Positions 38,381 through 44,556 of a stretch of DNA of 64,000 nt are shown piece after piece. The translations under genes and the position numbers were made by a program. Position 1 is the stretch's first letter, and each line of letters begins with the position of its first letter. Source of the stretch: an uncultured Candidatus Saccharibacteria bacterium (GTDB lineage: Bacteria; Patescibacteriota; JABMPQ01; JAQVVF01); the NCBI GenBank assembly GCA_964574655.1, contig CAZNOH010000001.1, forward strand, positions 265,852-329,851, given 5' to 3'. Under the pieces are notes generated by a model that was not told the origin of the DNA, searched no databases, and saw only the letters and a program-made list of their open reading frames with translations.

Positions 38381-40228
38381 TTACATTTTTTCGGGGGCTT
38401 CGATTCCAAGCAATTCGAGGCCTTTTCTGATTACAATGCCGGTACATTTACAGAGTGCAAGGCGAGCAATTTTAGTCGGTTCTGGCACTTCGTCGGAAAG
38501 GATCCGATGGGCATTGTAGAACCGGTTGAAAGCTCTTGCAAGTTCGAAGAGGTAGGCCGAAATTTTTGATGGGTCATGGTTTTCGGCTGTAGCTTGAATC
38601 GTTGGTCCAAACTCAGTGAGAGCAAGGAGCAAGGAGTGCTCATCGCTCTCTTGTAATGCAGAGTAGTCAGTCGGAATTGTTGTCTCTCCAGCTTTTCGAA
38701 GTAGACTGGCAATTCTGGCATGTGTGTATTGGACGAAAGGTCCAGTACGGCCATTGAATGCGATTGACTTTTTGGGGTCATAGCGCATTTCTGAGAGAGC
38801 TTTGCTATCAAGGAAGAAGAATTTCAATGCTCCGAGTCCGACTTGGCGAGAGATCTCGTCTAGTTCGGCTTTAGAAAGCTTTTCTTCCCTTCCTTCGTTG
38901 AGAGCTTCAGCTTCAGTTTTGGCTAGTTCGACGATGCTTCTGATCAGATCATCAGCATCGATGATTTTGCCCAAGCGTGACTTCATCTTTCCTTCAGGTA
39001 GGTTGACCATACCGTAGGGAAGATGATAGAGCACTGTGTCCTTGACTTCTTCGATGCCGAGCATTTTTAGAAGCAGGAACAGAACTTTGAAATGGTGGAT
39101 CTGTTCAGAACCGACCACGTAGACAGATTTAGCAAGCGGGCGATAGTCAGCAGACTTCAAGATGGCAGTGCCAATGTCTTGAGTAATATAGAGAGAAGTG
39201 CCATCGGCGCGGAGAAGGAGCTTGTTGTCAAGCCCTTCAGCACTCAGATTGGCATAGACTGATCCATCTTCCATGCGGAAGAAGATTCCACGAGCCAATC
39301 CGTCTTGGACGTGTTGTCGTCCGAGGAGATAGGTGTCGCTCTCATAGTAGATTCGGTCAAATTCGATTCCGAGCTTGGCAAGAGTTGCATCGAAACCAGC
39401 ATAGGTCCAGTTGTTCATCATGTGCCAAAGGGCCATGACTTCCGGATCGCTGGCTTCCCATTTCAGGAGCATTTCTTTGACAGCCAAGGCTGGCGGATAC
39501 TGTTCTAGGAAAGCAGTTTTGCGTTCTTCCTTGTCATCCAAAGGAGCTTGTGGATCAAGTCCCTGAGATGTGAGAAGAGTAGCAAAAGCTTCATCTTCTC
39601 TTTTTCCGTACATGGCGTAATAGCGTCCAACGAAGTGGTCACCCTTGGTGCCAGTACTTTCTGGAGTTTCACCATCGCCCCAAGTCTGCCAAGCATAGAT
39701 GCTCTTGCAGATGTGGGCGCCACGGTCATTGATCAAGTTTGCTCGGATAACTTCAAATCCCATTGCTTGGAAAATTCGAGAGATGCTTGCACCAAGCAGA
39801 GCATTTCGAACATGTCCAAGATGCAAAGGCTTGTTGGAGTTTGGAGCCAGGAACTCGATCATCACTCGTTGGCCGTTGCCAACAGTGCTTGTGCCGTAGC
39901 TTAGGCTTTCTTCTAAGATCTGCGAGCAGACCAGTCTGGCCAAAGCTCCGGTGTTGAGGTGGATATTGACAAATGGTCCTTGAGCTTCAGCTCTTGCAAT
40001 TAAGTCCGAGGTTTCGAAACAACCAGTGATCCATTCAGCAATGTCTTTGGGATCGCCGAAGTCTTTCAGTTGAAAACAAGGAAATGCGAAATCGCCGAGT
40101 TCAGGCTTGGGCGGTTTTTTCATTTTGTCAGGAGAAAATTCTGTTGCAGAAAAATCTGGATTGATTGCTTGTTGCGCTGCAATCAAAAGTTGAGTGCAGA
40201 CAAATTCCAATAGATCTTGCGCTTTCAT
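38381..40228 (-). CDS. argS: Arginyl-tRNA synthetase
   Basis: N-terminal Arg_tRNA_synt_N-like domain (GPFVNIHLNTGAL), HIGH motif PNSNKPLHLGHVRNALLG, KMSKS-like EGKMKSRLG, DALR anticodon-binding region (VGLGALKFFFL). GGAGG SD precedes the ATG at 40228. GC about 47%. Confidence 0.8.
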   Translation of the reverse strand: MKAQDLLEFVCTQLLIAAQQAINPDFSATEFSPDKMKKPPKPELGDFAFPCFQLKDFGDPKDIAEWITGCFETSDLIARAEAQGPFVNIHLNTGALARLVCSQILEESLSYGTSTVGNGQRVMIEFLAPNSNKPLHLGHVRNALLGASISRIFQAMGFEVIRANLINDRGAHICKSIYAWQTWGDGETPESTGTKGDHFVGRYYAMYGKREDEAFATLLTSQGLDPQAPLDDKEERKTAFLEQYPPALAVKEMLLKWEASDPEVMALWHMMNNWTYAGFDATLAKLGIEFDRIYYESDTYLLGRQHVQDGLARGIFFRMEDGSVYANLSAEGLDNKLLLRADGTSLYITQDIGTAILKSADYRPLAKSVYVVGSEQIHHFKVLFLLLKMLGIEEVKDTVLYHLPYGMVNLPEGKMKSRLGKIIDADDLIRSIVELAKTEAEALNEGREEKLSKAELDEISRQVGLGALKFFFLDSKALSEMRYDPKKSIAFNGRTGPFVQYTHARIASLLRKAGETTIPTDYSALQESDEHSLLLALTEFGPTIQATAENHDPSKISAYLFELARAFNRFYNAHRILSDEVPEPTKIARLALCKCTGIVIRKGLELLGIEAPEKM

Positions 40229-40244
40229 TTCGGGCCTCCTTTTA

Positions 40245-41483
40245 TCAGACATCATCACGCAGGAGCGGGCAGGTCATACAACGAGGACCACCGCGACCGC
40301 GAGAGAGTTCAGCGCCGGGGAGGGCAATAGCAAGTTTCCAGCCAACATTCTCGTGCTGATACATATAATATCCGGAATTGCGGACGAATTCATCGGCATC
40401 AATTACCTTGTAGCCACGTGTGCTGAGTTCCAGCAGAGTGTTGTCATTACAGTCGTAACCAATGACAACGCCAGGCGCAAGGGCAAACATGTTGGCGCCA
40501 TCAGTCCATTGCTCGCGCAATTGACTGATTTCGTTATTACCGCCGCAGACGATTGGATCAAGTTCGATGCCATTGGCATAAAGAAATTCAATCAAATTGC
40601 ATTCTTCAGTGGTCCATCTATTGATTTTCTTCGAACGGTATTCGATTTTCAGCTCACCATTTTTGAGAACCTTGGGGGCGTGAACAATCGCTTCGGTTTG
40701 TGAGATGCGAGTAAAGATGGTATCGAGGTGCATGCAAGAGCGAGCTTTGGCGAGCCTGACTCGAGCGACGGTTTGGAAACCGTTTTGGAGCAGCCGATCG
40801 GCGAGCCGGTCGATAGCAGTTTCGTTGGTTCTTTCGGAGCAGCCGACCAAAACGACATGTTCGTTCATCACTGCCATGTCTCCGCCTTCGATAGTGACGA
40901 TTTGGTCTTGTCCTTCATTGATATCGATTTGTTTGAGACCGGCGAAGAGCGGATGGTACTTTAGAACTAGCTGGGTCAGCGCCATCTCTCGCTTTCGGGC
41001 TTTTTTGCTGGCGTAGCATGAGACTGCATGATTGCCGACGATTGCTGCGATATCACGAGTGAAAATCAAGTTTGGTGCGGGATGGAAATATTCTTCATCG
41101 TCCAGCTGGCCATCATGCCGACCAACAATCAGAGTTCGAGTGAGCTGGTCGCCTTCGAGCCTAAGTAGTTTTTCCTGAATTCTTTTGGAGATACGTTTGA
41201 TTTCAATAACAATTTGAATTGCTTGTTTGCGGACATCTGGATCTCTAAATACGTAGGTCATTAGGTCTTCGATGGTCACGACATCAGCAACGGCGCGAAT
41301 AATTTCGACAAAAGTTTGATATTCTTGCTTGGTTCTTCCCATATTAACAATGTCATCATAGAGCAGAGATCGACAGTTCTGAGGAGTCAAAAGTGCATGA
41401 TTATTTCCAGGGAAATGAAGCATGACTTGACGGAGTCGTCCGATTTCTGAATAAATTCTCAATCCTGTTGTTGCCTGTTCCAT
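40245..41483 (-). CDS. arcA: Arginine deiminase
   Basis: About 410 aa with ...MHLDTIFT..., DGANMFALAPGVVIGY and C-terminal LSRGRGGPRCMTCPLLRD (catalytic Cys signature of ADI); AAGGAG SD; GC about 45%. Confidence 0.85.
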   Translation of the reverse strand: MEQATTGLRIYSEIGRLRQVMLHFPGNNHALLTPQNCRSLLYDDIVNMGRTKQEYQTFVEIIRAVADVVTIEDLMTYVFRDPDVRKQAIQIVIEIKRISKRIQEKLLRLEGDQLTRTLIVGRHDGQLDDEEYFHPAPNLIFTRDIAAIVGNHAVSCYASKKARKREMALTQLVLKYHPLFAGLKQIDINEGQDQIVTIEGGDMAVMNEHVVLVGCSERTNETAIDRLADRLLQNGFQTVARVRLAKARSCMHLDTIFTRISQTEAIVHAPKVLKNGELKIEYRSKKINRWTTEECNLIEFLYANGIELDPIVCGGNNEISQLREQWTDGANMFALAPGVVIGYDCNDNTLLELSTRGYKVIDADEFVRNSGYYMYQHENVGWKLAIALPGAELSRGRGGPRCMTCPLLRDDV

Positions 41484-41704
41484 CTTTTTTTCGCTCCTTG
41501 CAGGTTTTCTCCTGCTGTTGTCTTGAGATTCTATTCGTTTCCAAATTTTCTGAAAAAATGTAATAAATTGTGAAGGTGCTTCTGGACATTATAATCTTAT
41601 AATAGATTATTGCAATAGCTTTAGGCTAAGCGTGCTATTGTTATAATTTTAAGGACGTGTTAAATTATGTTGAACAGGTTACCCGAGGAAGGGAGGAGGA
41701 GAAA

Positions 41705-44369: not shown

Positions 44370-44386
44370 TAATGAGAACTGATGTC

Positions 44387-44460
44387 GTGACCCCAGCGAG
44401 GTTCGAACCCGCGACCTACGGATTAGGAATCCGTCGCTCTATCCAGCTGAGCTATGGGGC
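44387..44460 (-). tRNA. tRNA-Arg (anticodon CCT)
   Basis: GGCCCCATAGCTCAGCTGGATAGAGCGACGGATTCCTAATCCGTAGGTCGCGGGTTCGAACCTCGCTGGGGTCA; anticodon loop TTCCTAA. Confidence 0.85.
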
Positions 44461-44480
44461 CTAAAAGGAACAAGAATGAA

Positions 44481-44556
44481 TGGTGGGCCTGGCCGGATTC
44501 GAACCGGTGACTTCTCGCTCCGGAGGCGAGCGCTCTATCCACTGAGCTACAGGCCC
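44481..44556 (-). tRNA. tRNA-Arg (anticodon CCG), CCA encoded
   Basis: GGGCCTGTAGCTCAGTGGATAGAGCGCTCGCCTCCGGAGCGAGAAGTCACCGGTTCGAATCCGGCCAGGCCCACCA; anticodon loop CTCCGGA. Confidence 0.85.

Follow-up and report, generated by a model that had tools for sequence, protein, structure and literature searches.

The arginine region described here lies in a 64,000-nt stretch (the window) of contig CAZNOH010000001.1 (assembly GCA_964574655.1) from an uncultured Candidatus Saccharibacteria bacterium. It combines genes for an arginyl-tRNA synthetase (ArgRS; argS), an arginine deiminase (ADI; arcA), an ornithine aminotransferase (OAT), a putative citrullinase (ctlX) and five arginine tRNAs (Table 1). 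We read this region as its lineage's version of a conserved Patescibacterial module for arginine charging and catabolism, passed on vertically within the clade and not recently imported, and we put the probability of this reading at roughly 0.6. The core of the module would comprise a complete tRNA-Arg array, a 'type 2' ArgRS, a small protein of 182 aa resembling the ArgRS core and the arginine deiminase, with the ctlX-OAT cassette as an addition in this genome. Because the same block recurs in distant relatives, an inherited functional module is a better description than a freshly imported island.

In the proposed scheme, scavenged arginine would be split between two uses. On one side, ArgRS would charge the five adjacent tRNAs for translation, as suggested by its family and by nucleotides A20 and C35 of the tRNAs. 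On the other side, ArcA, encoded in one operon with argS, would convert arginine to citrulline and NH3, CtlX would convert citrulline to ornithine, CO2 and NH3, and OAT would convert ornithine to glutamate-5-semialdehyde/pyrroline-5-carboxylate and glutamate. This second branch would be a non-ATP-yielding route giving ammonia, ornithine and glutamate/proline-family carbon. We infer all enzymatic steps of the route from sequence.

The closest comparison is provided by two relatives, L002 (GCA_028699085.1) and L004 (a Logan assembly), in which the five-tRNA array, arcA and argS lie between the same ABC-transporter and PALP genes as in the window. The gene for the 182-aa protein is found at the same site in both (80% conserved), and the block is as GC-rich as in the window. 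Identity to the window proteins is 77% for ArcA, 84-85% for ArgS and 80-94% for the flank proteins; at four-fold sites, it is 0.48-0.57 for arcA/argS and 0.54-0.65 for the flank genes. Since the divergence of the block resembles that of its flanks, the block has diverged together with the genome. A sequence-only reading of this DNA had taken the region for a laterally acquired, self-contained island, which is contradicted by the shared site and the flank-like divergence of tRNA array, arcA and argS. The presence/absence polymorphism that would go with such an island is confined to ctlX-OAT and does not extend to the array, arcA, argS or the 182-aa gene.

More specifically, ctlX-OAT is absent from L002 and L004 and is the only variable part of the region in this respect. 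It is present in two other loci, L007 and L008, where it adjoins tRNA-Arg(GCG) with the same terminator/promoter junction. The window OAT is 83% identical to that of L007, in which the cassette is not followed by arcA-argS. Both sequences that flank the cassette site are kept in L002, and loss of ctlX-OAT in the L002 lineage is the simpler history. The junctions of the region recur in independent assemblies from different samples (GCA_028699085.1 and Logan SRR27710321, SRR13723393/4 and SRR22315503). No integrase or transposase Pfam families were found among the neighbouring ORFs, and a repeat search returned chance AT-rich matches only, with no att-type repeats. A phage origin of the region was also considered and rejected, as a scan of a viral collection with ArgS gave no relative.

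Between L002 and L004 themselves, identity is uneven along the locus: 99.5% for ArcA and 100% for the 182-aa protein and the ABC ATPase, as compared to 87% for ArgS and 89.5% for the PALP protein. This mosaic suggests recombination between strains inside the locus.

The module is also found in lineages distant from the window. In L043 and L044 (Candidatus Magasanikbacteria), a set of five tRNA-Arg genes, whose anticodons are those of the window array, lies directly upstream of a type-2 argS (argS2) whose product is 41% identical to that of the window. In L043, argS2 is followed by a small ORF and an Asp/Glu racemase gene, with arcA, argG, argH and proABC alongside, and a second argS, of type 1 (argS1), is located among other aminoacyl-tRNA synthetase (aaRS) genes. 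A metagenome contig, L051, has six tRNA-Arg genes followed by argS2 and a small ORF, together with a divergent arcA and, 5 kb away, ctlX. Another metagenome contig of ~52% GC, L042, shows the order argS1-arcA-argS2-ctlX. Two ArgRS genes with products ~30-33% mutually identical thus lie near arcA in both L042 (8069-13129) and L043 (3372-5057 and 10799-12595). Because the array stands directly upstream of argS in other lineages, it is an integral part of the module and not the island boundary for which it had been taken.

A metagenome scan with the ArcA alignment gave at least 80 loci; among those listed, the module is present only in the best one (L051), and the module genes are combined in none of the other 79 ArcA loci, again among the matches listed. 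The neighbourhood of the ArcA homologue P0260 contains no module. Exact-protein look-ups with the window ArgS and with the long ORF of CtlX gave no match. A genome-collection scan with ArgS gave just one close species, and 31 other distinct ArgS loci (30-45% identity) have no arcA, ctlX or tRNA-Arg array.

Some arrangements seen in the loci retrieved are recorded here in their own right. In three loci (L042 5826-6539, L043 9287-9985 and L131 846-1574), an Asp/Glu racemase gene lies beside the module or beside a member of the 182-aa family. Two Parvarchaeota (DPANN) contigs carry tRNA-Arg(GCG) less than 1 kb downstream of a related argS (L019 2623-2697 and L039 12277-12349). In three of three Flavobacteriales loci (L011, L012 and L013), a gene for a class-III aminotransferase ~38% identical to the window OAT is located 1-2 kb upstream of argS. 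Finally, on a 2.7-kb metagenome contig (L119), tRNA-Arg(TCT) (97-172) ends 12 nt before an arcA homologue (185-1408).

The five tRNA genes of the window, recognised by both ARAGORN and Rfam (63-69 bits), have the anticodons CCG, CCT, TCG, TCT and GCG in transcription order. As had been claimed, they form a complete isoacceptor set, with which the six arginine codons are decoded without inosine, that is, with no need for A34-to-I34 editing. A20 (GGATAGAG) and C35, which are ArgRS identity elements, are present in all five. Arrays with a signal of anticodon switching were found in the window, in L002 (3858-4369) and in L043 (12773-13245). For the window GCG tRNA, identity is 91% with its CCG neighbour and 89% with the CCG tRNA of L002, but only 76% with the GCG tRNA of L002; in L043, the TCT and TCG tRNAs differ by 3% (97% identical). 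This pattern of identity suggests that isoacceptors are replaced via duplication or conversion together with a change of anticodon. With respect to codon usage, CGN codons make up 74% of arginine codons in the region genes versus 31% in the 48 other ORFs of the window, in agreement with the sequence-only reading, although these host genes still use all six arginine codons. The array therefore presumably serves the whole genome, and a decoding capacity for the region's own codons, as had been proposed, is unnecessary.

Pfam, NCBIfam and structure matches bear out the earlier identification of argS, arcA, the OAT gene and the CtlX-like hydrolase gene, as well as the co-orientation of arcA and argS across a 16-nt gap. 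ArgS reaches 387 bits with the TIGR00456 equivalog (cutoff 262), has the N-terminal, catalytic and DALR domains and contains HLGH. An NCBI protein encoded on a 654-kb contig, which also holds the exact ArcA, matches it at 100%; identity is about 83-85% in related Patescibacteria and then ~46% at best elsewhere. ArcA scores 215 bits with Pfam ADI (PF02274, gathering score 22.8), aligns at full length with the Streptococcus pyogenes ADI 4bof and keeps the C-terminal Cys motif GGPRCMTCP. The guanidino-binding motifs NLIFTRD and MHLDT (FTRD and HLD as defined in PMC9007349) are likewise kept and are invariant in the ArcA alignment. The protein falls below the NCBIfam cutoffs (NF002381, 300 bits versus 414; TIGR01078, 290 versus 489) and, judged from the alignment, is of a divergent subfamily with a C-terminal insertion common to L042 and L043. 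Its nearest homologue outside the clade (43%) is that of L042, likewise flanked by argS.

The OAT is a class-III aminotransferase (Pfam Aminotran_3, 304 bits). It scores below the NCBIfam equivalog cutoffs of NF003145 (371 bits versus 656) and TIGR01885 (331 versus 378), which are still its two best-scoring models. The closest solved structure is the Bacillus anthracis OAT 3ruy (327 bits), with further OATs next; the Plasmodium, human and Toxoplasma OATs reach 231-257 bits and typical acetylornithine aminotransferases at most 196 bits. The protein is closer to characterised OATs than to acetylornithine, γ-aminobutyrate or putrescine aminotransferases. CtlX passes the NCBIfam equivalog NF046062 (404.6 bits, cutoff 334), and its nearest relatives outside the clade are in Bacteroidota (~55%). 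It carries the Asp-to-Asn signature FPNN (DSIFPNNW) and HTN (VYHTNV), which has been argued to mark a ureido (citrulline) substrate (Price et al., 2022, PMC9007349), and ctlX usually adjoins an ornithine-consuming gene (PMC9007349). Given the ArcA motifs, the FPNN/HTN signature of CtlX and the neighbouring OAT, the proposed route from arginine through citrulline and ornithine to glutamate semialdehyde is well supported at the level of prediction. It would run without arcB, arcC or arcD, as the sequence-only reading had it: a Pfam scan of the 52 window ORFs of at least 120 aa gave no member of these families.

The region was originally delimited by argS and the tRNA array; the genes inside are confirmed, but a further module gene lies outside these limits. 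Its 182-aa product, previously unrecognised and encoded by a GC-rich gene, belongs to the module. The small ORFs that follow argS2 in L043 and L051 are homologous to it (38% identity, E ~1e-46), and by tblastn the family is found only in loci carrying a tRNA-Arg array. The family is small, with 92 cluster representatives among 1.84 billion, and the protein has no Pfam or NCBIfam match. An AlphaFold model built on a 43-sequence alignment has a predicted local distance difference test score (pLDDT) of 97.5, and Foldseek agrees on a Rossmann-type class-I aaRS fold for the model. Profile alignment by hhalign (probability 12-42%, weak but consistent) pairs the near-invariant residues E73, D125 and E150-Q151 with ArgRS E296 (YES), D351 (TQD) and E375-Q376 (SEQ), positions which we take, from yeast ArgRS-arginine structures, to contribute to arginine binding. 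The HIGH region is reduced to a conserved E-x-G-H (E-A-G-H) at the N-terminus, and the N-terminal half of the family gave no significant hhalign alignment with the ArgRS HIGH region. The 182 aa are wholly one domain, with neither a DALR anticodon-binding nor an N-terminal tRNA-binding domain, and the alignment with ArgRS ends before the KMSKS-type (MKSR) loop. For these reasons, the protein is not an ArgRS. From the predicted fold and the retained acidic residues, it most likely binds arginine and possibly ATP, and would probably act as an accessory or sensor for the partition of arginine.

The GC-rich character of the region, pointed out in the sequence-only reading, is evident in 1-kb windows: GC is 0.39-0.49 over 38001-45000, with sharp steps at both ends, and ~0.27-0.37 in nearly all other 1-kb windows of the 64 kb, the single outlier being 0.40 at 56001-57000. 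GC at third codon positions (GC3) is 0.33-0.47 in the region genes versus 0.14-0.31 in nearly all other ORFs. The highest values are those of argS and arcA (0.46-0.47, versus ~0.24-0.31 in host genes on the same strand), with ctlX and OAT at only 0.33-0.34. The excess is due to C-ending and not G-ending codons. Nearly all genes of the window are on the plus strand, and the GC skew is ~+0.3. At third positions, plus-strand genes have G at ~0.12-0.19 and C at ~0.05-0.08, and minus-strand host genes have C at ~0.16-0.23 and G at ~0.06-0.10. The region genes follow the same rule, with C above G in the minus-strand argS, arcA and ctlX and G above C in the plus-strand OAT. They thus carry the mutational imprint of the host, and the third-position excess of the region is partly the genome's own strand asymmetry, which places C on minus-strand genes.

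A foreign gene undergoing amelioration is expected to show several-fold more GC-to-AT than AT-to-GC changes. Polarised synonymous changes in three genomes show no such excess (GC to AT versus AT to GC, 59 versus 56 in arcA and 71 versus 107 in argS), even though ~40% of the synonymous sites of argS/arcA have changed in one lineage, and the GC3 of these genes is almost equal across the three genomes. Furthermore, the GC offset recurs in other lineages. In L043, the ArgS2 and ArcA genes have GC of 0.49 and 0.47 as compared to ~0.40 in their neighbours; in L051, module genes have 0.56-0.57 versus ~0.44 around them and favour C-ending NAY codons (0.65-0.71 versus 0.13-0.32) on both strands; in the uniformly GC-rich L042, the offset is small. 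Given this recurrence and the missing GC-to-AT excess, composition alone does not show a recent transfer. A long-standing property of the module genes, with gene-specific selection (for example, on codon usage under high expression) acting on top of an old transfer among members of the CPR (Candidate Phyla Radiation), is more likely than a recent foreign origin.

Several observations weigh against an inherited Patescibacterial module. We met it in only four lineages, and the linkage is not universal: the type-2 ArgS of Parcubacteria GWA2_36_10 has no array and no arcA nearby. In a neighbour-joining tree of ArgS, the window clade falls within the Bacteroidota/Planctomycetes-Verrucomicrobia-Chlamydiae/DPANN/Parcubacteria type of ArgRS, on a long branch with a bootstrap of 23, a placement that names no donor; with this bootstrap, the phylogeny neither supports nor excludes transfer. 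The amino-acid make-up of the region proteins is strongly unlike that of the host (Lys 5% versus 10%), and LepA, a conserved host gene, is not GC-rich; both facts fit a foreign origin as well as they fit selection. The weakness of the profile alignment noted above counts here too, as the kinship between the 182-aa protein and ArgRS would rest on predicted structure. CtlX activity is without biochemical proof even for the founding members of the family (PMC9007349).

Among the alternatives, the most direct is that the region is a recent genomic island with its own ArgRS, tRNAs and arginine catabolism, bounded by the tRNA array and equipped to decode its CGN-rich genes. The composition would fit, with GC of 0.40-0.49 against a genome at ~31%, a strong CGN preference and an amino-acid make-up foreign to the host, and so would the presence or absence of ctlX-OAT among relatives and the Bacteroidota affinity of CtlX. 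Against this stand the conserved site and flank-like divergence of tRNA-arcA-argS, the lack of any donor closer than 43-55%, mobility genes and att repeats that were searched for and not found, third positions that follow the host strand skew without GC-to-AT excess, the use of all six arginine codons by the host and the tie between array and argS2 elsewhere. For tRNA-arcA-argS, a recent island is largely refuted, and for the region as a whole we hold it to be very improbable. An assembly chimera or contamination, in which a GC-rich fragment was joined into an AT-rich contig, would account for the sharp GC steps at both ends; it is excluded for practical purposes, since independent assemblies of different samples show identical junctions, and the contig runs on into host-type sequence on either side.

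A transfer may instead be old: a GC-richer lineage, possibly a CPR member like L042, would have donated the module to the ancestor of the clade, perhaps displacing a native type-1 argS, and the composition would be an incompletely ameliorated relic in which selection has no part. The codon and amino-acid differences from the host are consistent with this, and ctlX and OAT already have third positions near host values. L042, with ~52% GC throughout, has arcA-argS2-ctlX in the same order and no strong anomaly, and the two ArgRS types still present in L042 and L043 look like an intermediate state. However, argS and arcA show neither a GC-to-AT excess after so many synonymous changes nor diverging GC3 across the three genomes, the offset in L043 and L051 would call for repeated transfers, the C-ending NAY codons of L051 on both strands are what codon selection predicts, and the ArgS tree gives no resolved placement. 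We regard an old transfer of this kind as possible, though on balance unlikely. Yet another reading assigns housekeeping to a type-1 ArgRS elsewhere and makes type-2 ArgRS, mini protein and array a specialised system for arginine sensing, ADI regulation or non-ribosomal use of Arg-tRNA. It draws on the two ArgRS genes within 8 kb of arcA in L042 and L043, on the L043 arrangement with the type-1 gene among other aaRS genes and type 2 with the array, on the conservation next to argS2 of an aaRS-core-like protein lacking tRNA-binding domains, and on the L007 cassette without arcA-argS behind it. It is improbable in view of the three ArgRS domains and equivalog score of the window ArgS, of arrays that hold every isoacceptor for general decoding, of the single argS in the 64-kb window and of a 654-kb genome unlikely to keep two full systems; moreover, type 2 is the only ArgRS type near the Bacteroidota top matches, and in a Parcubacteria genome no other ArgRS accompanies it within the 12-18 kb examined on its locus. 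A related and somewhat less doubtful, though still rather unlikely, proposal centres on the 182-aa protein as a natural urzyme-sized ArgRS core that still binds arginine and perhaps ATP as well. In combination with a dedicated paralogue of ArgRS and a complete tRNA-Arg array of its own, it would make up a specialised system for sensing arginine or using Arg-tRNA, apart from the housekeeping type-1 ArgRS, that gates arginine between translation and deiminase catabolism.

Table 1. Features of the arginine region and its immediate surroundings, in window coordinates
Feature	Position	Strand	Remarks
Mini-ArgRS-like gene	36646-37194	+	182 aa, GC 0.41; class-I aaRS core-like
PALP (threonine-synthase-like) gene			AT-rich; between the 182-aa gene and argS
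Terminator-like hairpin after argS	38361-38341	-	Consensus scan
argS, 'type 2' ArgRS	38381-40228	-	615 aa; TIGR00456, three ArgRS Pfam domains
arcA, arginine deiminase	40245-41483	-	412 aa; Pfam ADI; 16 nt upstream of co-oriented argS
Divergent promoter region arcA/OAT	41484-41704		Includes conserved arcA leader and hairpin before the Shine-Dalgarno
Hairpin GCAGG-loop-CCTGC	41500-41515		Directly before the arcA Shine-Dalgarno; kept in L002 at ~4563-4578
Promoter-like TTGTGA-16-TATAAT	41568-41595	+	Consensus match only
Promoter-like TTGCAA-16-TATAAT	41615-41588	-	Consensus match only
Ornithine aminotransferase gene, rocD-like	41705-42925	+	406 aa; Pfam Aminotran_3
ctlX, putative citrullinase	42988-43929	-	313 aa; NF046062
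Terminator-like hairpin after tRNA array	44030-44008	-	A ctlX promoter-like site comes next; stretch 43964-44030
Five tRNA-Arg genes	44032-44556	-	ARAGORN and Rfam
Promoter-like TTGACA-17-TAAACT upstream of tRNA array	44594-44622	-	Consensus match only

Two start codons differ from the initial ORF calls. That of ctlX was corrected to 43929, preceded by GGAGG, and that of OAT to the ATG at 41705 (not 41657), behind GGAGGAGGAG and in agreement with the start of the L007 homologue. In the leader before arcA, ~30 nt (GAAGCACCTT.ACAATTTATTACATTTTTT) are conserved in L002, and the array terminator hairpin and the TTGACA box of ctlX are conserved in L002, L007 and L008. The consensus matches suggest that the array, ctlX, OAT and arcA-argS may each have their own promoter and terminator. 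Rfam at a relaxed threshold over 36400-45500 returned tRNAs only, with no known riboswitch or leader, including at the arcA leader. An AT-rich gene for a 180-aa formyltransferase-like protein with the N-terminal domain only (44712-45254, minus strand) separates the tRNA array from the ABC transporter and is absent from L002 and L004.

Elsewhere in the window, a second GC-rich ORF (56282-57043, plus strand; GC 0.46, 253 aa) carries a signal sequence resembling those of lipoproteins (MKRTSLCMLMVVMCGC); neither Pfam nor NCBIfam gives a match for it, and none of the comparison loci retrieved contains a homologue. A bacterial class-A RNase P RNA match at 6421-6932 (plus strand) extends over 512 nt on a 367-position model, which implies large insertions. 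The plus strand also encodes an eRF1-like protein (baeRF family 10) at 27448-28530, next to tRNA-Gly/tRNA-Thr, a LAGLIDADG-domain ORF at 21779-22600 and an RVT_3/RNase H ORF at 5818-6258.

Parts of the module can be compared with systems already described. Truncated class-I aaRS paralogues include GluQRS/YadB, MshC and the cyclodipeptide synthases. Unlike these, the window protein has only 182 aa, is assigned to no family, has its HIGH motif reduced to E-A-G-H, stops before the KMSKS-type loop according to the alignment and is linked with argS2 and with an array of tRNA-Arg genes. In Escherichia coli, argQZYV repeats a single isoacceptor, whereas the array described here holds the full isoacceptor set of one amino acid and is linked to the cognate synthetase. 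As in bacterial tRNA arrays, its genes follow one another head to tail and have a promoter and a terminator to themselves (here, consensus matches). Long bacterial arrays, or L-arrays, serve many amino acids and can contain as many as 43 genes (PMC8421152); the five genes found here are all for arginine and do not form an array of many amino acids in that sense.

For argS together with arcA, the nearest precedent comes from Lactococcus lactis, whose arc cluster reads argS-arcA-arcB-arcD1-arcC1-arcC2-arcT-arcD2, argR lying upstream (PMC5300872, PMC7818446); there, too, argS and a transaminase gene are clustered with the arginine deiminase gene. That cluster encodes the full ATP-yielding ADI pathway (arcB, arcC and antiporter) and contains no tRNA genes. 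By contrast, the 64-kb window has no arcB/arcC/arcD, citrulline would go to CtlX, arcA precedes argS, and the neighbourhood includes a mini-ArgRS-like gene as well as a complete array of tRNA-Arg genes. Similar to the loci of Price et al., 2022 (PMC9007349), a CtlX with FPNN/HTN is found beside an ornithine-consuming enzyme. In those loci, from Proteobacteria, ctlX adjoins ornithine cyclodeaminase or AruFG (PMC9007349), whereas here the neighbour is OAT, and ArcA would supply the upstream step from the same locus, in a Patescibacterium. Arginine catabolism is important, and sometimes horizontally acquired, in CPR/Patescibacteria, as illustrated by mammal-associated Saccharibacteria, which acquired the ADI system (Tian et al., 2022, PMC8764695). 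In the accessible part of that account, the system is the canonical, ATP-giving arcABC(D), and no link to ArgRS, a tRNA array or CtlX is reported. Apart from argS in the Lactococcus cluster, we found no literature account of a coupling between ArgRS, tRNA-Arg genes and ADI, in line with the sequence-only reading, which knew of no such arrangement. Nothing was found in the literature on ArgRS duplication, ArgRS paralogues or ArgRS-core-like proteins in CPR either; coverage was incomplete and this absence is weak evidence.

Patescibacteria rely on scavenged amino acids, and arginine catabolism matters for cultivated Saccharibacteria. The tie between a tRNA-Arg set, a particular form of ArgRS, ADI and an ArgRS-core-like protein in several CPR lineages suggests that the split of arginine between decoding and catabolism is under coordinated control, for which the module is a concrete and testable gene set. 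Turnover of isoacceptors through anticodon switching is seen in the array, and the stable, recurring and non-ameliorating GC offset of the module cautions against reading composition alone as recent transfer. The 182-aa protein, if its predicted structure holds, would be a natural class-I aaRS core of very small size whose pocket resembles that of ArgRS, and may bear on new roles of aaRS fragments and on debates about minimal synthetases.

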